The notes beneath the pieces are model-generated. The model was not told the DNA's origin and did not search any database. It saw nothing but the letters and a program-made list of their open reading frames with translations. The translations under genes were made by a program, and so were the position numbers. A stretch of DNA of 64,000 nucleotides from a virus: the IMG/VR virus record IMGVR_UViG_3300017987_000006, positions 64,001 through 128,000 of that record, one strand, 5' to 3'. Positions 12,037 through 61,597 of the stretch are shown here, piece by piece; within the stretch, counting starts at the first letter, position 1, and the number at the start of each line of letters is the position of its first letter.

Positions 12037-12759
12037 GTGAACACAGAGTCATTCTTCGACGAGTTGGAGAAGATAGCGTTCGACTGGGCGGATATGAATC
12101 GGGTGCTGCGTTTGAGTAGAGCTCGGACGCTTCGACTTCCACAACGTCTACTTCCGGTAGGGCCGATGTCTGTCCCCGCGGCCTCCAAACCTTACCAACT
12201 AGCTGCCGCTAGGGAAGCCGTTGAAACTGGACAGATTCCTGCGGCACTAGGCGACGCATCGATGCGGTTTGTCGGGCAGACGAGCGGCAAGGCCCTAATG
12301 CCGAAGGGAGGCGTGGTCCGGCAACTGGAGCAGCGTGGGATGCCGTCTGGAGTGGTCAAAGGCAGGGAGCGCAAGGCCATGGAGTCTCTGTTACGGGGAC
12401 ATGAACTCGATGAGGTCACCTTGGGTGCGAAGAAGTTCGACCCGGAGTACACCATAAAGACGACGCACGTTAGTCCCGACGTGGTTCTGAGGGAGAGAAA
12501 CAGGCTTCTGACGATGCCGCCTGAGGTGCGTCCGGCTGTCACAGAGGCTATGTCACCTATCCGCTCGGTGCTTGATACACCTGCTCTGGAGCGGGCGACC
12601 AGAACCGTTTCTGGGAAGGGGCTAGATTATGGCAGTGGCCCGCGGTTGAGCCGTCACGCGCGCAAACGGATCTCCAAAAGGATGAAGGAGATCACGAAGA
12701 GCCCAGATACTCCGTCAGCCACAGAGATGATCAGAGAGGCAATGGAAGGGGCAGCGTAG
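12037..12759 (+). CDS. Basic protein with N-terminal 'FFDELEKIA' motif; putative internal virion protein
   Basis: Start moved to GTG 12037 (VNTESFFDELEKIA); Arg/Lys-rich; contains GHELDE. Confidence 0.7.
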   Translation: MNTESFFDELEKIAFDWADMNRVLRLSRARTLRLPQRLLPVGPMSVPAASKPYQLAAAREAVETGQIPAALGDASMRFVGQTSGKALMPKGGVVRQLEQRGMPSGVVKGRERKAMESLLRGHELDEVTLGAKKFDPEYTIKTTHVSPDVVLRERNRLLTMPPEVRPAVTEAMSPIRSVLDTPALERATRTVSGKGLDYGSGPRLSRHARKRISKRMKEITKSPDTPSATEMIREAMEGAA

Positions 12760-35443: not shown

Positions 35444-35812
35444 ATGGAAAAGATCACTGCGGTCATGGCGAGCTGGGAGGCCTTCCTTTTGGCGTTCGCC
35501 GCCTTCGCGATCATTGGAGTCATCAGGCGAGCCGGCACGAAGAAGGACAAGGACGGAAATGTGGTCGGGGGTTGGGCGCAGAGCAAGCCGTTCAGCATGT
35601 TCATGGACTTCTACCCTTACATCTTCTGCGGCGGGATGGTGTTCGTACCAGGGATCCCATTACCAGAGAAGCTGGAAGCGACAATCGGGGCCAAGGTCTT
35701 GTACGCTATCTACTGTGGGTGGCTCTCTGACAAGTCCTTTGCCATCGTCAAACGCGTGCTGGAGAAGGGGCTCGGCATGAAGTTCGGGGCGGACAAGAAC
35801 GGCAAGAAGTGA
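35444..35812 (+). CDS. Membrane protein (about 3 TM; holin-like candidate)
   Basis: Hydrophobic segments and a basic C-terminus. Confidence 0.5.
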   Translation: MEKITAVMASWEAFLLAFAAFAIIGVIRRAGTKKDKDGNVVGGWAQSKPFSMFMDFYPYIFCGGMVFVPGIPLPEKLEATIGAKVLYAIYCGWLSDKSFAIVKRVLEKGLGMKFGADKNGKK

Positions 35813-36135
35813 TGTCCAAGACCTGGTCCTGGCTGAAGAAGAACTGGATGTGGTTGATCGCCCCCGTGACGATCGCCGTCCTCGTCATCCTCTACCTCAT
35901 GGGGTGGAGACCAGAGAAGAAGGACGACGTGGACTCCGTCACCCCGGACGATGCCGCCGACCAGGCCGTGGAGGACACCAACACGGCGCACGATGAGCGG
36001 GAGAAGGCCATCAAGGAGCTGGAGGCGGAGCATCGCGAGAAGCTCAGCGAGATGACGGAGGAGCAGCTCGAGGAGTTCGAGGAAGTCAAGAAGAAGCCCA
36101 TAGACGAGGTAGCTGCATGGATAGACAGTCTGTAG
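35809..36135 (+). CDS. N-terminal TM + acidic coiled-coil protein (i-spanin-like layout)
   Basis: WMWLIAPVTIAVLVILYLMGW followed by an E/K-rich helix. Confidence 0.5.
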   Translation: MMSKTWSWLKKNWMWLIAPVTIAVLVILYLMGWRPEKKDDVDSVTPDDAADQAVEDTNTAHDEREKAIKELEAEHREKLSEMTEEQLEEFEEVKKKPIDEVAAWIDSL

Positions 36136-36596
36136 CATCTTTCCTGGATGAGCTAGAAAAGATCGGTGCCACCGTCTTGATGAAGAGCTTGTCCCCTGCG
36201 GCCAAGCGCCTCATGCGCAAGGCAACGGGATTTACCGGATTGGCGGAAAAGGCGCAACCGGCGGCGGCCGCACAGATGCGGAGGGCCTTGGCGGGCCAGG
36301 GTCTTCACACTGAGGCCAGCATTCGTGCCGGTGGAGCTGGTCGGATAGCCAAGCGTCAAAGCCGTCGAGCGTACGATGAGGTCTTGAAGAGGCAGGGCCG
36401 GGTGTATCAAGGTACGCCGGGGTTGCAACAGCAGCTCGCGGCGATTCCTGGGCATCCGGGAACCATCACCAGAACACCGGCACGTATCGTTCCGCGCAGC
36501 GGTGTTTCGACCGTTAAACCTTCAGACGCGACTAGATCTGTAGCAGTTCCAAGACCTCAGCTGGCAGATCCATACGCTGCCACCGTTCTGGCGTAG
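36117..36596 (+). CDS. Basic protein with N-terminal 'FLDELEKIG' motif
   Basis: MDRQSVASFLDELEKIGA; Arg/Ala-rich. Confidence 0.65.
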   Translation: MDRQSVASFLDELEKIGATVLMKSLSPAAKRLMRKATGFTGLAEKAQPAAAAQMRRALAGQGLHTEASIRAGGAGRIAKRQSRRAYDEVLKRQGRVYQGTPGLQQQLAAIPGHPGTITRTPARIVPRSGVSTVKPSDATRSVAVPRPQLADPYAATVLA

Positions 36597-36599
36597 ATC

Positions 36600-38012
36600 A
36601 TGAATCGGAGAACTTTAAGATCGCTGTGGGAGGAGCTGGAGAAGTGCGCGGCTAAGCTAAAGACGGAACTTCTGCCGCACCAAGAGCGTGTGGTGCAGAA
36701 GATCAAGGGTCAGCGCGGACTTGTCGTCGCCCACGGTCTCGGTTCCGGAAAGACTCTTTCCTCCGTCGCCGCCGCGGTACAGCTCAAGCCCGATAGTACC
36801 AAGGTGCTCGTCCCCGCATCCCTGCAGGAGAACTACAAGAAGGAGATGCGGAAGCACGTCAAGGGCAGGCTGCCAGGCAAGCTGAAGGTGGAGAGCCTGC
36901 AGAACTACGCTTCCAAGGGCCTGATACCAAACAGCGATCTCCTCGTTGTAGATGAGGCGCACCGCGCACGCAACCCCGCGTCGAAGACCTATCAGATCTT
37001 GCATGACGCGGACAACAAGAAGCGACTGCTGCTGACGGCCTCCCCAACCTACAACCGGCCGGCGGACGTGGCGACGTTGGTGAACCTGGCGGCGGGGGAC
37101 AAGGTCCTGCCGGCGGGGGCTGAGTTCGACAAGAGGTACATCGCCAAGCCGGCCAAGGGTGTCTGGTCTCTGCTCCCATTCACTCGCAAACGTCCGGGGC
37201 TGGTCCGCAAACACGAGCTGAAGAAGCCGTTGCAGAAGTGGGTCGACTACCACAAGGCGGAGGGGGCGGACTTCCCGGACACCAGTGAGGAGCGGGTGGT
37301 CACCAGGATGTCCAAGCGGCAGACGCAGCTGCACGATCATGCTTGGGGCAAGCTGCCGCTGATGACTAGGATCAGATTGAGGCGCGGTCTCCCTCCTGGT
37401 AAGGAAGACCTGCCCAAGATGAACTTCTTCATGGGGCAGTCGCGCCAGATCGCGAGCACGGAATCACCCTTCACCAAGGGACAGGCCGAGACATCGCCCA
37501 AGCTCGTCCGCGCGGTGGACGATCTATCAGCGAGGACCGCCGAGAACCCACGGCATCGGGGTTTGGTGTACTCCAACTACCTGGGCACGCTACGTGACTA
37601 CTCGCGAGAGCTGGAGAAGCGGAAGATCCCGCATGCAGCGTTCACGGGAGCACAGTCCCAGAAAACACGCAAGCAGCTGGTCCGGGACTACAACAAGGGC
37701 AAGCTGAAGGCGTTGCTGGTATCCTCCGCCGGAGGCGAGGGGCTCGATCTGAAGGGTACTCGGCAGGTGCAGGTGCTCGAGCCGCACTGGAATGAGGAGA
37801 AGCTGAAGCAGGTCATCGGTCGAGCAGTGCGGCATGGATCTCACAGCCACTTGCCCGCAGAGGAGAGACATGTCAACATCCAGAGGTTCGAGGCAAAACC
37901 ACGTCACGGTGGGCGAGGAGTCGAGCAGGTGCTGTATGATACGGCAGAGGACAAGGAACGCTTGAACCAGGAGCTGCGTGGGTTGATCACCAAGGGACAA
38001 CGTCATGGGTAG
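36600..38012 (+). CDS. SF2 SNF2-like helicase/ATPase with N-terminal 'LWEELEKCA' motif
   Basis: Walker A HGLGSGKT, Walker B VVDEAH, motif III LLTASP, SSAGGEGLDLK, QVIGRAVR. Confidence 0.9.
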   Translation: MNRRTLRSLWEELEKCAAKLKTELLPHQERVVQKIKGQRGLVVAHGLGSGKTLSSVAAAVQLKPDSTKVLVPASLQENYKKEMRKHVKGRLPGKLKVESLQNYASKGLIPNSDLLVVDEAHRARNPASKTYQILHDADNKKRLLLTASPTYNRPADVATLVNLAAGDKVLPAGAEFDKRYIAKPAKGVWSLLPFTRKRPGLVRKHELKKPLQKWVDYHKAEGADFPDTSEERVVTRMSKRQTQLHDHAWGKLPLMTRIRLRRGLPPGKEDLPKMNFFMGQSRQIASTESPFTKGQAETSPKLVRAVDDLSARTAENPRHRGLVYSNYLGTLRDYSRELEKRKIPHAAFTGAQSQKTRKQLVRDYNKGKLKALLVSSAGGEGLDLKGTRQVQVLEPHWNEEKLKQVIGRAVRHGSHSHLPAEERHVNIQRFEAKPRHGGRGVEQVLYDTAEDKERLNQELRGLITKGQRHG

Positions 38013-38250
38013 ACGATCTATGAGAGCGTTCTGGGGGGAGCTGGAGAGCCTGGAGAAGCAAGCGGAGACCCACAAGCTAGGTGCTATGTACCACGGCTCT
38101 CCGCGCAAGTTGGGCATACTGAAGCCTCGAGACGAGCATGGAGACCCACGCGTTGTAAAGCAGCGGCGGTGGTCAGAGAAGGATGATCGGGGGGACCTGG
38201 AACTGGAGCGAGGCGCGTGTGCCTCTGGCTATGGCGCAGCAAGCTCGTAA
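38005..38250 (+). pseudogene. Short ORF with 'FWGELESLEKQA' motif and YHGS; possibly a truncated ADP-ribosyltransferase-like gene
   Basis: MYHGSPRKLGILKP resembles the first ART strand, but the ORF stops at 81 aa with no further ART motifs. Confidence 0.4.
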
Positions 38251-39058
38251 GCGGAGCCTCAACATCGATGAGGCTCTGTGGGAGCTGGAGAAGAAGGCGC
38301 GGTGCATCGTGAAGTCGGAATACCTTGCCTGGAAGAAAAAGCGTGAGAAGCAGCTTGGTAGACCAATGACCTTCAAAGAGCTGGACACGGAGTTGTACAC
38401 CAGCCGTACGCCTCCTTGGGAGAAGAGGGCCTACAAGCTCCAAGGCAAGACCGAAGTCCAGGGCATCCCAATCTCCATTGAGAACCGCAAGGGCTCTGTC
38501 CGAAAGGGCACGGACTCGGACGGTAACGAGTGGAAGACTAAGATGCTCCTACCGTACGGATACGTCCGCGGCACGCGCGGAGCGGATGGCGAGCCGGTAG
38601 ACGCCTACGTCGGCCCGGACAAGGAAGCTCCGGACGCCTACGTTGTACACCAGAGGGATAAAGAGACCGGGAAGTACGACGAGGACAAGATCTTTTTTGG
38701 CATGAAATCCAAGAAGGATGTCAAGGAGGCGTTCTTGAAACACTACGACAGTCCAAAGTTCCTTGGGCCGATATCCCGTGTTCCTGTCGAGCGGCTAAAG
38801 GAGCTCATCACCTCCAAGCGCCGCCTCGTGAAAATCTCCGCGGCCAAAGATCAAAAGAACAAGGCCCTCCACTTCGCCCGCAAGGCAGGCCCTGGCCTCG
38901 GCGGCCTGGCCGGCCTGGGCATCGGCGCGGTCCTGGGAGCCCGCCGCGGAAAGCTCCTTAAGGGAGCCATCGCGGGTCTGGGAACCGGGGCAACACTGGG
39001 GTGGGTGCCGGACATGGCCGCCAACGCCCGCGAGGCCATCAGGAAGGTGAGTAAATGA
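38231..39058 (+). CDS. InPase (inorganic-pyrophosphatase-like) domain protein with 'LWELEKKA' motif and C-terminal glycine zipper
   Basis: ISIENRKGSVRKG...W...YGYVRGTRGADGEPVDAYVGP...VVHQ...YDEDKIFFG; start taken at ATG 38231. Confidence 0.75.
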   Translation: MAQQARKRSLNIDEALWELEKKARCIVKSEYLAWKKKREKQLGRPMTFKELDTELYTSRTPPWEKRAYKLQGKTEVQGIPISIENRKGSVRKGTDSDGNEWKTKMLLPYGYVRGTRGADGEPVDAYVGPDKEAPDAYVVHQRDKETGKYDEDKIFFGMKSKKDVKEAFLKHYDSPKFLGPISRVPVERLKELITSKRRLVKISAAKDQKNKALHFARKAGPGLGGLAGLGIGAVLGARRGKLLKGAIAGLGTGATLGWVPDMAANAREAIRKVSK

Positions 39059-39585
39059 TCGCCTCGTTCTTCGATGAGCTGGAGAAGATAGCGCTGAGCC
39101 AGGGCTTACTCACCAGGGCGTACACCAAGGCCACACATCTGGCGGAGCGGTACGGTCGGCAGGGTGATAAATGGCGGCAGCGTAAAGGGTTCCCGAAGAA
39201 GAAGCTCAAAGACCCCCAGCGCTCGGAGAAGGCGTATAAGAAGGCGCGTAGGTACAGCGGCATAGGTCAGGCGATCAAGAAGAAGCTCGAGGAGGAGCCG
39301 CGTTCTCTGAAGCTGCGGAACGTCAGCCGCGGAGAGCACAAACACTTCCGCCAGATCTTCGAGACGCGCCAAGCGGTGAAGCAGAAGGCTGAACAAGAGG
39401 CGAAGAGGAAGATGAGAGCAGAAGTCGAGCGCCAGGTTCAGAAGAGACTCCTCCGCGAAACAAATCCTCGGGAGTACGCGTACCAGTTGTGGCGCGGCCC
39501 ACATACTCCAGACGATGCGATCTCCAAGAAGATGTTTGCGAAAAGGATGAAGCACCACGACGCTTCGATAAAGGCTACTAAATGA
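39055..39585 (+). CDS. Highly basic protein with N-terminal 'FFDELEKIA' motif
   Basis: MIASFFDELEKIALS; K/R-rich. Confidence 0.65.
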   Translation: MIASFFDELEKIALSQGLLTRAYTKATHLAERYGRQGDKWRQRKGFPKKKLKDPQRSEKAYKKARRYSGIGQAIKKKLEEEPRSLKLRNVSRGEHKHFRQIFETRQAVKQKAEQEAKRKMRAEVERQVQKRLLRETNPREYAYQLWRGPHTPDDAISKKMFAKRMKHHDASIKATK

Positions 39586-40130
39586 GGGTCCTAATTATCT
39601 GCGCGCTAAGCCTCCTCAGCGCCCCTGTGAGCGCCCGGACCCCCTGCACCATCCAGGACTACTCCGACCCCTCCAAAGCGCCCGATTTCGGCTGCCCAGG
39701 CCCCCAGGAGCCCGCCCTGGTGCCCGAGCTGAGGCCCAAACCCTCAATGGGGATTGAAAACGGCGCGACGGTCCTAATTAAGAAGAAAAAGATTCCGGTA
39801 CTTTATGACGCCGTTCTGATGGACAAGCTGAAGGTCATCGAGCTGGGCTTGAAAATCAAGGGGTTACGAAGGCTGCGCTGGCTCGAGCGCCACAAGGGGG
39901 AGAAGCTCCTCGCGGTGGAGCGGAAGTACGTGGGCCAGCGCTACCAAGCCCAGCTGAAGCTCGAGCAGGAGCGGGTCAAGACCGCCAGGGGTCAGCGGGA
40001 TGACGCCAGGCAGGAGAGGGACGATTCGCGGAAGTGGTATAGGTCCTTTTCCTTCGGCTTCACCGTGGGGGCTGGGACCGTGGTCGTTGTCACGGCCGGC
40101 ATCGTCATCGCTGTCCTCGCCGCGCGATAG
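39582..40130 (+). CDS. Exported coiled-coil protein with C-terminal TM anchor
   Basis: Signal-peptide-like N-terminus (…PVSA), coiled coil, hydrophobic C-terminus. Confidence 0.6.
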   Translation: MRVLIICALSLLSAPVSARTPCTIQDYSDPSKAPDFGCPGPQEPALVPELRPKPSMGIENGATVLIKKKKIPVLYDAVLMDKLKVIELGLKIKGLRRLRWLERHKGEKLLAVERKYVGQRYQAQLKLEQERVKTARGQRDDARQERDDSRKWYRSFSFGFTVGAGTVVVVTAGIVIAVLAAR

Positions 40131-54727: not shown

Positions 54728-55491
54728 GTGAGCAGTCCTCCTTGCACTAGAAACATATCGCGCATTTTGTATCCTCGATCGGGCATGGGAGTGTCCCAGT
54801 ATACCTGCCGAAGTTTGTCTAGCAGGTAGGCCGCGCGCCTCCACGCAACCAGGGCCTGGCCCCATACTCCTATCTTTCTCTTGTCCCCGCTCCGCGCGAG
54901 AAAAGCGGGGTGATACATCGACATCACCGGGTAGGTGACGTCGGTCGCCTTGCCGCGGATAACGCAGTGCTGCACCTGTCCTTGGACGTTCCGCATCGTG
55001 ACTGAGCGCTGACCCGTCACCTCGAGCACGGCGGGCTTACCCATCGCCACTACCAACAGTGGATCAATCTCGTACAGGACCTCCTCCCAGAACGGCCGAC
55101 AAGCAGCCCGCTCCTTACTGGACGGGTCCCTGTTCTCTTCTCGCTTACGACCAGATCTCTCATCGGTGGAGATGGAGAACGGACGACACTGGACAATGTT
55201 CATCACGAACACGCTTCTGCGATCTATCTTCACGGCCTCCAGGTACTCATTGAGGATGTCTCCCGAAGGTCCTATGAAGGGAGCGCCTTCGAGATCTTCT
55301 TCCTCCCCCGGGCCGATGCCGATGATGACCATGTCCGCATCGACGTTTCCATCCGGCATTACGATTCTTCCAGCAGTGCCGTCCGTTTTGAGTTTCTTTT
55401 GCTCTCGCAGCTCTCCAAGTCCGCACTTTGTACACCCGCGCCATTTCCTAAAAATGGAGAGCACCCTCTGCTCTCTTTCGGTTGGGCTCAT
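54724..55491 (-). CDS. Uracil-DNA glycosylase superfamily protein, family 4/5 (Fe-S)
   Basis: CTKC, GIGPGEEED..G.PFIGPSG, MNIVQCRP, AC, YHPAFLAR. Confidence 0.9.
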   Translation of the reverse strand: MSPTEREQRVLSIFRKWRGCTKCGLGELREQKKLKTDGTAGRIVMPDGNVDADMVIIGIGPGEEEDLEGAPFIGPSGDILNEYLEAVKIDRRSVFVMNIVQCRPFSISTDERSGRKREENRDPSSKERAACRPFWEEVLYEIDPLLVVAMGKPAVLEVTGQRSVTMRNVQGQVQHCVIRGKATDVTYPVMSMYHPAFLARSGDKRKIGVWGQALVAWRRAAYLLDKLRQVYWDTPMPDRGYKMRDMFLVQGGLLT

Positions 55492-57422
55492 TCTTGGTCT
55501 CTCCGAGGCTTGAGCGTTTTGAATTCATACGGGCCGCCTTCATCCGACGGCCAGCGCCTCAGCTGCAGCTTCAGTTTGTTGCACATCCTGTGGAAGAGAT
55601 AGATATAGACATCGTCGTAGATCACCACGAGCGGATTCTTCATCCCTTCGTGGTGGCGATACCCCTGGATCCGCCCCATCCCCTGCTGCAGCGCGTTCTT
55701 TCCTCCTTCCGGGTGTTGTGAGCCGAATGGCGTCATCCAGAACAACGTGTCCAGGCTGTCTTCGTCGATGGCCTCCATCACCAGCTGGTGTGTTCCAAAG
55801 ATCAGCTGCTTCGTTCGGAGCGCTTCCCACCTCTCTTTCACCTTCACTGAGCCTGTGCAGATACCTGTTGAATATCCCTCCTCCAAGAACTTGGCGTGCA
55901 TCAGACGAAGGTGGTCTACGCTGTGACTCAGCGCCAGCACCTTTCGTCCTGCCGCGATAGCATCTCGCAGGTCTTTGGCGATGTACTCGTTGCGTTCTTC
56001 CATCCTGCCGACGTATGATCGCAGCAGTCCTATGTTGGGCTTTCCGGCCTTGTCGATGACGTACTCGTTGTAGTCTGCTGGGGATATCTGAAATAGCGTT
56101 TGACGGAAACGGATGTCTGTGGGGACGTCCTGTGACAGGTCTTTGTGGAATGGTTCGCCGAGGTGGTAGTTGTAGACCACCTCGGTGCCGTCTTCGCGGT
56201 TCACCGTAGCGCTGAGCCCGAACCTCCGACCGCAGAACATTGTCGCGGTGATACAGAAGTACGGGGCCGCTAAATGATGACAGTTGTGGACTACTACATT
56301 GGACGAGCTTACTTGGTAGGTAGGGGTTCCGCCGATTTGGAGATTGTATACAAGACCGTTTGGACAACGTCCTCCAAATGTTCCATCGGGCGTAGAGTCT
56401 ACCCGCCGGACAGCCTTCACCTTTTGCTTCTGCGCAGAGCACAGCACCGTGTCATCGCTGCTTAAAGCCAAAGCAGGGACCCACCCTCTGGCGGTCCAGA
56501 ACGGGTGCTTTGGCGTACAAACGATCTCTACTCCGTCTATGAGGACAGAGACCAGTGCGTGTGGACGCGATACGAAGATCCTTTCAATAGGCCGCTTCGA
56601 GAACAATCCCATGTGTTCATCAAACGACCAAACTAGATCTCCCACTCTTCGCCTCTCTATTGGCACACCATCAACCAGAGTCCCGGCTACAAAGCACTCA
56701 TCCCATATGATAGTCCCAAACCATCTACGCATCTCTGGAGTTACCTGATCGGCATACTTTGCCAGTGTGTGCAGCGTGGCGACAACGATTGGCCGTTTCC
56801 AAGTCCACCTGCTGGGACTCCCACGGATCAATCCGATTCCGCCATCGAACTCCAAAAATTCCCTGATCTTCTCTTCCCACTGATCAAGTATCGTCGTCTG
56901 GTTTACGATGACTAGGGCGTTGTGCCCGAAGTGGGCGATGGCGTGCAACGCGATTGTTGTTTTTCCTTTCCCACAATTTAGGTTCAGCAGCCCGTTGTCC
57001 GCCTTGATGAATGCGGCGAACGCTTTGCGCTGCGTGTCCTTGTCCGGCTGCAGCTTGTCCAGGACGACGTTGCTCTTGAACACCGCCCGCGGGAAATTCC
57101 CTGGCGTGATGTCTACGATGGGGAATGTCAGCTGGCCGTACGTGTCGGGAGGAACATACTCTCGCGGCACAGCGATGTGGTGTGGGCTGTCCTCCCAGAG
57201 CTGAAGGAACTCCATCCCCTCTTCTCCGCTGACCTCGAACTCCAAACTGGCCTTGATCGATATCGTGTTGACGTGCTTCTTAGGAAGCCACATCCGTGTC
57301 CCCAGGTACGCCCTTTCGGGGTCCCTGACGATGAATTTGAAACCTTCCATCCGGCCTCCAGGTGCTCTCCCCAGGTCTGGAGAATACTCCCCAGGTCTGG
57401 GGAGAGCTATCCGTTCTTCCAA
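55488..57422 (-). CDS. SF2 DExH helicase (UvsW/ResIII-like) containing a mini-intein
   Basis: NCGKGKT, DE|CHH after splicing, GLSAT, QQGMGRIQ; alternative start ATG 57350. Confidence 0.9.
   Translation of the reverse strand: MEERIALPRPGEYSPDLGRAPGGRMEGFKFIVRDPERAYLGTRMWLPKKHVNTISIKASLEFEVSGEEGMEFLQLWEDSPHHIAVPREYVPPDTYGQLTFPIVDITPGNFPRAVFKSNVVLDKLQPDKDTQRKAFAAFIKADNGLLNLNCGKGKTTIALHAIAHFGHNALVIVNQTTILDQWEEKIREFLEFDGGIGLIRGSPSRWTWKRPIVVATLHTLAKYADQVTPEMRRWFGTIIWDECFVAGTLVDGVPIERRRVGDLVWSFDEHMGLFSKRPIERIFVSRPHALVSVLIDGVEIVCTPKHPFWTARGWVPALALSSDDTVLCSAQKQKVKAVRRVDSTPDGTFGGRCPNGLVYNLQIGGTPTYQVSSSNVVVHNCHHLAAPYFCITATMFCGRRFGLSATVNREDGTEVVYNYHLGEPFHKDLSQDVPTDIRFRQTLFQISPADYNEYVIDKAGKPNIGLLRSYVGRMEERNEYIAKDLRDAIAAGRKVLALSHSVDHLRLMHAKFLEEGYSTGICTGSVKVKERWEALRTKQLIFGTHQLVMEAIDEDSLDTLFWMTPFGSQHPEGGKNALQQGMGRIQGYRHHEGMKNPLVVIYDDVYIYLFHRMCNKLKLQLRRWPSDEGGPYEFKTLKPRRDQE
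56283..56696 (-). mobile_element. Mini-intein (138 aa, no endonuclease) inserted in Walker B
   Basis: Starts CFVAGTLV, block B CTPKHPF, ends VYNLQIGGTPTY...VVVHN followed by Cys(+1). Confidence 0.9.
57364..57407. repeat. Direct repeat (CTCCCCAGGTCTGG x2, period 20) nested in an 11-bp inverted repeat
   Basis: Copies at 57367-57380 and 57387-57400; GCTCTCCCCAG/CTGGGGAGAGC. Confidence 0.75.
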
Positions 57423-57907: not shown

Positions 57908-59140
57908 ATGATCAACGCCCTGCTGGATATGTACGACGACCCCTCCGGCATCGTTCTCAAAGAGAAGGTCGCTTCGCTGGAGGATGTACCGGAGTTTATC
58001 AAGCAGGCTGAGCGCCTGGACCGAGAGACGCTGGACAAGCTACCTGATGACGTCTTCGCCCTGGTCATGCTGGACAGCGGAGACAAGATGCGTAAGTACG
58101 CCTGCACCGACAAGGGAAACACCGCCCTCTCAGTGCTCTACTTCATGGAGACCAAGAACAACCTTCCGGCGGAGGCTCAGAAGACAGCGGCGAAGAATCT
58201 GATGGAGGCCTGTCGATGGTACAGCATGGAGCCCCCCGCCGAACTTGAGAAGACCGCCCTTCTCGGCCCGGCGATGGGAGCAGTAACCCTTGGCATGGGG
58301 GCAATGGAAGGCAACCGCCGATACAAGCAGCGCAAGGCGGCGCTTCAGCAGGGTGCAACGGGGTCGCAGATCATGAAGATGAGCGAGATGGGAGCCAACA
58401 TCATGCCCAAGACCAAGGTACCTGAGAAGACGGCCTCCCTGAAGCCCCACGTCGACATCACGGGCAAGCACCCACCGCAGCAAGTAACCCAGGAGACCGG
58501 AAGGTTCTACGCGCTCACCAAGGAGGGTGGGGCCCGATACCCAATCGACACCATGGGTCAAGTCCAGAAGGCGATCACGTATTTCGAGAAGTACGCCGAG
58601 CGCTTCACACCTCCTGATCGCCACCTCTTCTGTGCGAACGTGTCTCGGAGGGCGGACGAGCTCGGCGTACCCGTGACTGAGAAGATCGCCAAGTACGGAG
58701 CGTCCACCATGGCCCAGGATGCCCCCGTAGCGATTTATCAGCGCCAGAGGATGTTCCGTGAGGGGACCAGCGAGCACGGCCTACTGCAAGAGATGCGCGA
58801 GAAGTGTGCCTCGATCAAGCCCGAGTTCCTGGCGGTCACGCTGGAGAACTTTGATAAGCAGGCGGGGCTGGACAGGCTGTGGGACAACGGTCTGCCAGAT
58901 CCGTACTACTCGATCTTCGGTGTGGAGAAGCGAGCTGAGTACAGCTTCACCACCGCGAACGACACGATCAACGAAACACGCTTGAAACGCTGCGCCAAGG
59001 AGTGTAAGAAGCAGGTCCAAGATCTGTTCAACGAGGATGTGGCGGAGGAATTTTCCAAGGACCCGGTGCAGATTTTCGATTCCCTTCCCCTGGACCAAAA
59101 GCGTATTATCATGCGACTGGCATCCCAGGTCGAAGAATAA
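57908..59140 (+). CDS. Head-associated protein with many (E/D/Q)K-x-A sites
   Basis: EKVA, QKTA, ELEKTA, EKTA, EKIA, DKQA, EKRA; a short hydrophobic Gly-rich segment follows ELEKTA. Confidence 0.7.
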   Translation: MINALLDMYDDPSGIVLKEKVASLEDVPEFIKQAERLDRETLDKLPDDVFALVMLDSGDKMRKYACTDKGNTALSVLYFMETKNNLPAEAQKTAAKNLMEACRWYSMEPPAELEKTALLGPAMGAVTLGMGAMEGNRRYKQRKAALQQGATGSQIMKMSEMGANIMPKTKVPEKTASLKPHVDITGKHPPQQVTQETGRFYALTKEGGARYPIDTMGQVQKAITYFEKYAERFTPPDRHLFCANVSRRADELGVPVTEKIAKYGASTMAQDAPVAIYQRQRMFREGTSEHGLLQEMREKCASIKPEFLAVTLENFDKQAGLDRLWDNGLPDPYYSIFGVEKRAEYSFTTANDTINETRLKRCAKECKKQVQDLFNEDVAEEFSKDPVQIFDSLPLDQKRIIMRLASQVEE

Positions 59141-59912: not shown

Positions 59913-60719
59913 GTGTCCCGGGACTACGAAGCTGAGCTCCGGGAGGTCCTGGAAAAGACGGGTCAGTCAGCCGGCATCACCAACACGACGGACGAGTCGG
60001 CCGAACACGTCGAAACCACGTCTCCGGAGACAGAGCACACGGAGGCGGAGAAGGTTGTTGTTACGCCCTTCTCCGCCGCCAAGCTCTTTGTGCACCACGA
60101 CACACATCCTCTGGTCTTGGACATCAAGCTGATGGATCAGTATGGGCTCTCGTGGTTCGAGTGGGAGCCCACGACGTTGTGGCGAGAGATCATGGACGAT
60201 TTTCGGACGCCCTCGATCTCGGACCACGTCAAGAGCAAGATCCAAGCCCTACGTACGACGCACATCACAGATAAGGCGTTCGCGAAGTGGGAGACGTTCT
60301 CCGTCATCACGCAGGCACTGAACAACAACATTCCAGACTTCGAGATCATGCGGAGGCCCACCATCTCCCAGCTGTTTGCGGCAGTGGACATGATGACTAT
60401 GGTTCGCAACGATGTCCCGTTCAGCGAGGAGATCGAGTACTGGTGCGGGGCCGCACTGCTGGATGCGGGGGTGGTGTGTGCCCCCCAGCCCATCGCTTTC
60501 TGCCAAGACGCAATCCTGGAGATTCAGGAAGAATTGGGAGTAGAGGTTGACCCAGCTCCCGTAAAGGAGAAATATAGACTATTGCTGTCTGTCCCCGCGG
60601 AGGAGGTGGAGCTCAGGGAGAACCCGGTGGACATCCAGGTGATGAAGCTGATCATTGCCAGGGACTACCTTTCTTTGCGTCGCGGCCAGATGAAAGAACA
60701 GCTGAGGGCCCTACGATGA
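59913..60719 (+). CDS. Hypothetical head-module protein
   Basis: 268-aa ORF with typical codon usage; ATGA overlap with the next gene. Confidence 0.7.
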   Translation: MSRDYEAELREVLEKTGQSAGITNTTDESAEHVETTSPETEHTEAEKVVVTPFSAAKLFVHHDTHPLVLDIKLMDQYGLSWFEWEPTTLWREIMDDFRTPSISDHVKSKIQALRTTHITDKAFAKWETFSVITQALNNNIPDFEIMRRPTISQLFAAVDMMTMVRNDVPFSEEIEYWCGAALLDAGVVCAPQPIAFCQDAILEIQEELGVEVDPAPVKEKYRLLLSVPAEEVELRENPVDIQVMKLIIARDYLSLRRGQMKEQLRALR

Positions 60720-61597
60720 ATGCATACAAGACCCTGGCCTTTGTAGACGAGCTGGAGAAGCTGGCCCTCGCACCTTCGTTGGTCCAGCGGGCCCTACGGT
60801 CTGGTGTCGGCCGTGCTGTCGTCAGCAACGTCCCGAAGGTCTGGGGCTCTGGTTTCGGGCGCGCGGCAGCGGGAGCCCTGCCTGGGGCGGCCATAGGTGC
60901 TGTGGCAGACCCGCAGGACAGTGTTCGGGGGGCAGTCCTGGGCGGTCTTGCTGGAGCTGGAGCTGGCTATGCATCACCCCTGCTCACGGCTGGGGGTCGC
61001 GCTCGTGCTAGAGAGGCCCTGAAGCAGTGGGGCAGGGAACAGAAGCACTCCTTCGTTGGTGGTGAACTCCCCATCAAAAAAAGCATGAAGCCGGAAGAAA
61101 TCGCGAAACTTCGATCTGCGGAGAAGGCCGGGCTGACTAGTCTGCCGGGCGTAGTCAAGGGGATGGCAAAGAGGCCGCTACAGACGATGAAGGCTGGTTG
61201 GCAACACGCTGGAGGTCTGGGCAAGGCTATGATCGTGGGGGATGTGGCGCTGCAGGCTCCGGGCCTTGTAGACCCAACCACCCCAGAAGGAACGGGGGAG
61301 AAGGCCCTGCGGATGCTCGGAGGGACAGCAGGATTTCTTGCCGGAGGAAAGCTGCCGATGTTGGCTAGCCTGGCCCCCATGGCCGGGCTGGCGTACCTCG
61401 GCGGGAAGGCTGGTCGCGGGATCGATGTGTTGACAGGCGAGAGAGCAAAGAAAAAGAAGATGATGACTGCGGCGCAGCAGGCCGAAGCCGACAAGTTTTT
61501 GCGGGTCAGGCCTACTACTGCTCTCGCTCAGCGGGAGGCGCGGAAACTCGTCCCGGCCGGGTACATCCCGGCTGGGTACGGACCGGGGGTTGTCTGA
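60716..61597 (+). CDS. Glycine-zipper protein with N-terminal 'FVDELEKLA' motif
   Basis: GALPGAAIGA..GAVLGGLAGAGAG and LGGTAGFLAGG..AGLAYLGG. Confidence 0.7.
   Translation: MNAYKTLAFVDELEKLALAPSLVQRALRSGVGRAVVSNVPKVWGSGFGRAAAGALPGAAIGAVADPQDSVRGAVLGGLAGAGAGYASPLLTAGGRARAREALKQWGREQKHSFVGGELPIKKSMKPEEIAKLRSAEKAGLTSLPGVVKGMAKRPLQTMKAGWQHAGGLGKAMIVGDVALQAPGLVDPTTPEGTGEKALRMLGGTAGFLAGGKLPMLASLAPMAGLAYLGGKAGRGIDVLTGERAKKKKMMTAAQQAEADKFLRVRPTTALAQREARKLVPAGYIPAGYGPGVV

Follow-up and report, generated by a model that had tools for sequence, protein, structure and literature searches.

Why do five small adjacent genes of a phage each carry a variant of the same short peptide near the start of their products? 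The genes lie at 36117-39585 on the + strand of a 64,000-nucleotide stretch (the window) that spans bases 64001-128000 of IMGVR_UViG_3300017987_000006, a phage record of 178,259 bp that is complete and bears direct terminal repeats. The initial annotation had seen in them an 'unbundled' set of SNF2, inorganic pyrophosphatase (InPase) and ADP-ribosyltransferase (ART) genes, all tagged with an ELEK motif for co-delivery with the DNA. By analogy with the capsid targeting sequence (CTS) of phage T4, we consider it fairly probable that the row encodes capsid-internal proteins, injected cargo that would be loaded and clipped by way of this peptide. The row's open reading frames (ORFs) are listed below, together with a frame break.

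36117..36596, + strand: g1, leader-tagged basic protein of 159 amino acids (aa) (ORF list, motif)
36600..38012, + strand: g2, 470-aa protein with leader and minimal SNF2-family ATPase (PF00176, PF00271, phrog_62)
38005..38250, + strand: g3, 81-aa protein with leader and ART-fold stump (hhalign, homologue search)
38189..38194, + strand: run of six G (G6), frame break in an ancestral g3-g4 gene (alignment to P0004)
38183/38219..39058, + strand: g4, InPase ORF of 291/279 aa (PF18823)
39055..39585, + strand: g5, 176-aa leader-tagged, very basic helical orphan (ORF list, motif)

A shared leader and its counterpart in head proteins

The row is real: its five ORFs are tightly coupled, with overlaps or gaps of 3 to 20 nt, and between 36117 and 39585 we found neither a sigma70-like promoter nor an excess of terminators. 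All five products are basic (isoelectric point, pI, 9.3-11.4), and all carry the predicted ELEK motif near the N-terminus, namely SFLDELEKIG in g1, SLWEELEKCA (encoded at 36621-36650) in g2, AFWGELESLEKQA in g3, ALWELEKKA in g4 and SFFDELEKIA in g5. The leader as a whole comprises about 18 residues, with a basic start (M-D/N/G-R-Q/R-S/T) followed by [AS]-[FL]-[FLW]-[DEG]-E-L and the end E-K-x-A. In g1 it reads MDRQSVASFLDELEKIG (36117-36167), and this same 18-aa leader heads InPase polyproteins of relatives. The g1 protein (pI 11.4) is predicted to be mostly disordered (ESM Atlas model pLDDT 0.50), and g5 is helical, with 27% Lys plus Arg and a pI of 10.5; neither has a match in Pfam or PHROGs or relatives in the ESM Atlas.

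The strict pattern [FLW]x[DEG]ELEK-x-A occurs nine times in the ORFs of the 178-kb genome, seven of these within the first 35 aa, compared to a mean of 0.16 (0.018) in 500 residue shuffles. Genome-wide, approximately 12 ORFs bear the leader: the five neighbours in the row and about seven elsewhere, which encode unrelated proteins. Its codons vary at synonymous sites (CTA/CTG/TTG, GAA/GAG, GAT/GAC), which shows selection on the peptide rather than on the DNA. Moreover, the sequence of the leader is lineage-specific yet common to neighbouring genes within each genome: it is aFxDELxKIA in relative L012, ELAFKLGF in L019 and SY..LSrFGL in L016. Window genes outside the row that carry the motif are the following.

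12037..12759, + strand: leader-tagged orphan gene (SFFDELEKIA) in the tail module (motif)
60716..61597, + strand: leader-tagged gene (AFVDELEKLA) with a glycine-zipper segment (motif; weak PF13441)
57908..59140, + strand: K-x-A-rich protein (12 sites vs 3.3 expected) with an internal PAELEKTA (motif count)

The end of the leader recurs in the head proteins of this phage. Seven proteins of the head module contain 9-16 K-x-A sites each, whereas 3.3-6.4 are expected, a 2-3.6-fold enrichment. Around the 82 sites of these seven proteins, E is found at position -1 in 24, a hydrophobic residue at -2 in 46 and A or S at +3 in 34, so that the consensus, hydrophobic-E-K-x-A-(A/S), equals the end of the leader. 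Near the N-terminus of the capsid protein (phrog_2522), residues 21-29 read GREKIAEYG, and its L012 homologue keeps this stretch; most head proteins were unmatched in the PHROGs search.

A candidate for the enzyme that would cut such sites is encoded at genome position 148304. The best PDB folds for its N-terminal domain are T4 gp21 (5jbl, probability 0.85, E 0.13) and herpes proteases, and a disordered, K-x-A-rich linker follows behind this domain. The family has more than 1100 members, in which H118, H119 and S176 are invariant, and many homologues are interrupted by inteins. A phmmer search of the protein against PDB gave no match. We consider it a candidate head protease of the T4-gp21/herpes-assemblin type, the class to which the predicted fold is best, if weakly, matched.

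These data also bear on the view that the motif has nothing to do with virions, and is instead a scar left by recombination or the boundary of a cassette, a signal for localisation or degradation, or an element of translational coupling. Tagged genes that are scattered, variable among relatives and tightly overlapping would suit it. We nevertheless think it very unlikely: the peptide is conserved but the DNA is not, head proteins are enriched in the same site motif and the capsid protein has it too and, as described below, the tag can be N- or C-terminal, separated from the enzyme by a K-x-[AGS] site, and an InPase resides inside the putative head-protease gene of a relative.

The enzymes of the row and a split gene

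The product of g2 is an SNF2 ATPase, as initially annotated. Both RecA-like lobes score above the Pfam cut-offs (PF00176: 56.5 bits, cut-off 24.9, E 3e-15; PF00271: 63.7 bits, cut-off 23.5, E 2e-17), phrog_62 is matched at 5.7e-44, and the motifs are intact in the translation, including Walker A (GLGSGKT), the DEAH box (VVDEAHRARN) and motif VI (QVIGRAVRHGS). The best sequence matches in PDB are Rad54-like 1z3i and, second, vaccinia NPH-I (6rfl_Y, 5.6e-12), others including ISWI, Chd1 and Sso1653. The profile of the polyvalent-type SWI2/SNF2 domain, PF18766, gives only 17.9 bits (cut-off 26.7) over just 36 residues, and a Pfam search of the row and its flanks detected no methylase domain. By its profile scores, g2 is not of the polyvalent PF18766 type.

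Orthologues of g2 number 20 in IMG/VR, plus gp217 of Salmonella phage Arash, the nearest cultured one (37.6% identity). In Arash, L008, L012, L013, L016 and L019 the gene lies among head genes or adjoins that of the RNA polymerase (RNAP); Arash gp217 is found directly 3' of RNAP beta' and 5' of structural genes. Searching the 20 SNF2 loci by tblastn with the small proteins of the row yielded no matches; thus, the composition of the row is not conserved around SNF2. SNF2 itself is a core protein of the clade. In the particle proteome of Arash, Gp217 is abundant, with 38 unique peptides and 1148 spectra, compared to 40/1210 for RNAP beta', 30/1333 for the capsid protein and 32/877 for the portal (PMC10585845).

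In the Pseudanabaena phage PA-SR01 (L002, 5575-9105) the SNF2 orthologue adjoins the capsid gene and has an N-terminal extension of about 140 aa with repeated RRNFLKN and HFANF motifs. Glycine-zipper proteins encoded next to it share these motifs, and a different leader may serve the same purpose there.

The InPase assignment of g4 was borne out as well. The protein matches PF18823 from position 7 to 134 of the 135 in the profile, with 142 bits and E 1.4e-41, and the putative catalytic and metal-binding acidic residues are conserved: E84, D119, D124, D150, D152 and K153 are invariant in 22 InPase homologues, E121 nearly so, and DGEPVD aligns to DGDPVD of the Helicobacter pylori PPase. The domain also forms part of a solved phage portal, the C-terminal domain of portal gp19 (9b41_L in PDB, 2.5e-17), and its PHROGs are annotated as minor head or virion proteins. 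In cultured phages it is matched under features annotated as portal, minor head protein, DarB-like, Snf2 helicase or methylase. Within the clade it is patchy, with none in Arash, PA-SR01 and two near-complete relatives; a locus scan with a single sequence found just one, and an alignment query was needed. Along g4, an internal ELEK site (ALWELEKKA, 38273-38299) is followed by the InPase domain (approximately 38426-38809), behind which come an LVK-I-S site and a glycine-zipper tail (approximately 38886-39055) that is conserved.

The third enzyme fared differently. Residues 24-52 of g3, MYHGSPRKLGILKPRDEHGDPRV, align only to columns 1-29 of an ART-fold 'YHGS' domain of about 190 aa (hhalign probability 97.6); g3 matches nothing in Pfam or PHROGs, and the polyvalent ART profile PF18760 was not found anywhere in the genome. 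With 29 domain columns it is a remnant and not an enzyme, so that the claim of an intact ART fails. An exhaustive HMMER search recovered three longer proteins that share the g3 segment MYHGSPRKL...HGDPRV, the start of the approximately 190-aa domain, which itself weakly matches DUF6886. A model of the whole domain (pLDDT 94.4) has its best structural matches, with modest scores, in ART-fold proteins, namely the rifampin ART Arr (2hw2, probability 0.96), KptA, an Rhs ART toxin, pertussis S1 and PARPs (VIA Z 4.8-5.0 for KptA, TreX and Arr). The complete domain of the relatives looks, in its predicted structure, like an ART fold. The 'YHGS' family, collected with g3 and P0124 as P0122-P0148 from phage-like contigs, is undescribed, and its domain is found singly, in two copies, or in fusion with InPase, GNAT, SET or P-loop kinase domains.

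Moreover, g3 and g4 are the halves of one ancestral gene and are not independent by descent. P0004, a 402-aa relative with 59% identity, aligns continuously across both: its residues 110-127 follow the g3 frame up to 38193 and residues 127-401 the g4 frame from 38189. The frame is shifted by +1 relative to relatives at the G6 run, and the last approximately 20 codons of g3 are out of frame. Translation of g4 could restart at GTG 38219, a plausible start with GGAG 8 nt upstream, or at ATG 38231. In another relative, P0073, a complete ART-like domain is fused to InPase. The layouts of P0004 and P0073 suggest an ancestor with leader, ART-like domain, internal ELEK site, InPase and tail, of which most of the ART domain would have been lost before a frameshift produced two ORFs with an ELEK motif on each. 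The initial description of separate small genes thus holds for the five ORFs of the row, but g3 and g4 derive from one gene, and the InPase gene itself is, by its layout, still a multi-module polyprotein of leader, ART stump, second ELEK site, InPase, K-I-S site and tail.

A one-off assembly error behind the split is rejected: the G6 region is letter-identical and gap-free in Logan contigs of four public runs from three studies, although the source sample may be among these runs and two of the four resemble one data set. Over the whole segment 36000-39700, contigs of the metagenome runs X1-X4, from sediment (2018) and seawater (2021), agree letter for letter and may come from one sample filed repeatedly. 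Programmed +1 frameshifting at GGGG is conceivable but unsupported, the next codon being the common GAC.

As for the surroundings, virion genes on the + strand occupy the window as far as approximately 40.1 kb. They are followed by a replication operon on the - strand, which encodes PolA, primase, DnaB, an SF2 helicase with intein and a RecA-like protein, and then by further + strand genes, which lead on to an RNA polymerase with an intein and to the head module. The helicase of the operon is a second gene, and the SNF2 protein of the row is distinct from it, as had been stated:

55488..57422, - strand: SF2 (ResIII/DEAD) helicase with a HINT intein, replication operon (domain search)

The HINT (intein-type) domain interrupts it immediately behind the DEAD/ResIII lobe. 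For the RNA polymerase of the phage, the Arash counterpart is the most abundant virion protein. The row itself is preceded by genes for a beta-helix fibre of 1195 aa and for two small membrane proteins, a 122-aa ORF with multiple transmembrane (TM) helices (35444-35812, +) and a 108-aa ORF with TM helix and coiled coil (35809-36135, +), and the strand switch comes directly after it. Small membrane ORFs 5' of the row have weak Rz-like PHROG matches, and the 182-aa ORF at 39582-40130 (+) resembles a unimolecular spanin, with a signal-like peptide at its N-terminus, a coiled coil, and a TM helix at its C-terminus. The small membrane ORFs that flank the row may form a lysis cassette.

Fused and tagged layouts across relatives

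We carried out the comparison of fused and tagged layouts that had been proposed for this locus. A K-x-[AS] site lies within 28 aa before the Q motif in 15 of 18 distinct SNF2 orthologues; it closes the N-terminal leader in separate genes and is internal in fusions. Fusions were found in L005/L006 (1560 aa, with NUDIX), L013 (753 aa) and L014 (1259 aa), the partners being NUDIX, DUF5661 or unrecognised. L005 has LITDLEKEAAK at the site of LWEELEKCAAK of the window.

For the InPase, the FxDEL tag is N-terminal in six relatives and C-terminal in six. Close relatives carry either an N-terminal FFDELEKIG or, behind LVK-I-S, a C-terminal SFFDELG..., and in these the K-x-[AGS] site is always between tag and enzyme. 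In L038, L039, L042, L043, L045 and L047, genes for InPases of about 160 aa end in a FxDEL-type tag after LVK-I-S; such C-terminal tags are the mirror image of the N-terminal leader in the window. When all 55 distinct InPase ORFs were considered, the flank test was mildly positive, with K-x-[AS] upstream in 18 of 55 against a background of 16%. Distant polyvalent InPase proteins (700-2700 aa) lack the FxDEL tag and mostly have L-E-K-A/S; since this is another spacing, we limit the K-x-A rule to the clade.

In relative G002, an InPase is found inside the K-x-A linker of the homologue of the putative head protease (L109; G002:C1:32332-35718, - strand, 792-aa ORF), as an insertion of about 245 aa flanked by LEKTA- and EKKAS-type sites. 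Further fusions join ART-like and InPase or GNAT and InPase, and other tagged or fused partners in the clade are GNAT, P-loop kinase, SET and a second ART-like copy.

The fused relatives and the annotated InPase matches of cultured phages confirm SNF2 and InPase as recurrent parts of polyvalent proteins (PMC5512222). Of the proposed 'unbundling', one part stood: the same modules occur in tagged genes and in fusions, the K-x-A junction motif (seen before SNF2 in both layouts) is common to the two, and one tagged two-module gene has here been split by a frameshift. The other part, that tagging replaces fusion, did not: the two occur side by side in the clade with one cleavage-type motif. To judge from these alignments, tagging and fusion coexist and interconvert.

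This coexistence also counts against a DarB-type anti-defence kit, in which SNF2, InPase and ART would be injected against restriction or immunity, with tags in place of fusion. We regard such a kit as improbable, even though the domain repertoire of the row overlaps that of polyvalent proteins (PMC5512222), InPase is matched under DarB-like antirestriction, Snf2 helicase and methylase features of cultured phages, and in relatives the tag is found on GNAT, NUDIX, P-loop kinase and ART-like domains. Its ART would be a 29-residue stump and its SNF2 falls below the PF18766 cut-off (17.9 vs 26.7 bits) in a row that has no methylase. Moreover, SNF2 is clade-core and linked to RNA polymerase, whereas InPase is patchy.

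Proposed loading, clipping and delivery of the cargo

In the reading that we favour, the proteins of the row would sit inside the capsid and leave the virion together with the DNA. The FxDEL part of the leader would form an amphipathic helix that docks each protein in the assembling prohead, and h-E-K-x-A-(A/S), where h is hydrophobic, would be the cut site of the phage's own gp21/assemblin-type head protease. This protease would trim the leader and separate the modules, probably cutting after Ala as in herpes assemblins. The cargo would then consist of a minimal SNF2 translocase, a type-I-like pyrophosphatase freed from its glycine-zipper tail, two very basic proteins of DNA-binding type and a vestigial ART fragment. 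As each module has its own tag or site, gene boundaries would be free: modules that relatives keep in polyproteins of two to four domains would here be separate, one gene having been split by a frameshift with the tag kept on both halves.

In phage T4, the internal proteins IPI-III and Alt carry a CTS that the prohead protease gp21 removes. The system proposed here resembles it in having a short N-terminal peptide on unrelated, mostly basic proteins that ends at a putative head-protease site, in a cargo that includes enzymes (T4 Alt is an ART) and in the predicted gp21/assemblin-fold protease. It differs in the motif, which is FxDELEK-x-A here and ...(L/I)-x-E in T4, in tags that are C-terminal or internal in relatives, in modules that also occur as polyproteins and in genes that lie outside the head module. 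Herpesvirus assemblins cut at V/L-x-A↓S. Common to these sites and ours are a small residue (Ala) followed by Ser or Ala and a predicted protease of the same fold, but Lys replaces the hydrophobic residue two before Ala, and the position of our cut is a prediction.

Many ejection proteins of the giant phages SPN3US and phiKZ (PMC7411985, PMC10052503), a virion RNA polymerase among them, lie inside the head and have propeptides that a gp21-like protease cuts at a short motif; there, however, the motif is (S/A/G)-x-E, and one portable leader common to them has not been described. With the polyvalent proteins of Iyer et al. 2017 (PMC5512222; P1 DarB, N4-type virion RNA polymerase) our row shares the vocabulary of SWI2/SNF2, InPase, ART, NUDIX and GNAT, and the predicted packaging and delivery with the DNA. 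In contrast to them, the genes here encode 80-470 aa with a leader on each, the SNF2 is not of the PF18766 type and comes without methylase, and a zincin peptidase is absent, processing being assigned to the head protease.

Alternatively, the leader could be the propeptide or assembly handle of internal, scaffold-like head proteins that stay in the capsid or are degraded, and the enzymes would not be delivered. This would agree with a motif common to scaffold-like and portal-like proteins, with the resemblance of g1 and g5 to basic DNA-packing proteins and with the structural look of glycine-zipper tails. Still, intact and conserved ATPase and pyrophosphatase sites make little sense within a DNA-filled capsid, and the portal-fused InPase and the RNAP in Arash virions point to delivery, so that we give this alternative a small chance.

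Several observations weigh against loading and clipping of injected cargo. The row lies at the end of the tail-fibre/lysis region and outside the head module. The fold matches of the 148304 protein are weak (E 0.1-0.9), and Pfam S77 (PF03420) was not found in the genome, 148304 included. The RNA polymerase ORF (genome 129765-137507, 2580 aa, beyond the window) has no ELEK leader, nor has it an excess of K-x-A sites (23 vs 18.5 expected). Arash gp217 also comes without the leader although it is present in virions, so that the tag is not the sole route. Furthermore, the 'structural proteome' of Arash comprises 116 of 272 proteins, among them ribonucleotide reductases (PMC10585845), and is thus not clean. 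Finally, the role of g1 and g5, which lack homologues, is guessed from what they are composed of.

As to what the cargo might do, SNF2 would be a core virion protein of this clade of RNA-polymerase-packaging phages and could work with a co-injected RNA polymerase, like RapA or NPH-I, while InPase removes pyrophosphate. This is the weakest link of our proposal, tentative enough that we lean slightly against it. Clearance of pyrophosphate by InPase was suggested in the 2017 paper on polyvalent proteins (PMC5512222). As in vaccinia NPH-I (6rfl) and Escherichia coli RapA, an SNF2-family ATPase is found alongside an RNA polymerase, and in Arash virions the orthologue and RNAP are co-abundant; unlike these, g2 has only the two-lobe core (470 aa) with no accessory domains, and the association is known from genes and the Arash counts. 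As SNF2 is linked to the packaged RNA polymerase, we infer that an early-transcription role is to be favoured over a DarB-like one.

A broader proposal, possible but on balance doubtful, is that a clade of RNAP-packaging phages of approximately 140-195 kb uses a portable, position-independent loading peptide (FxDEL helix plus Lys-x-Ala cut site), so that enzymes can be swapped, fused or split as cassettes. Polyvalent proteins and tagged genes would then be interconvertible, and SNF2 (with or without InPase) plus the polymerase would make up an injected early-transcription kit. If the leader loads and K-x-A clips, the two would provide a readable rule for predicting the injected proteins of many uncultured phages, and would explain how polyvalent effector proteins are assembled and broken up. 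The short tag could be used to load foreign proteins into capsids, and an SNF2 motor would join the proteins that are co-delivered with a virion RNA polymerase.

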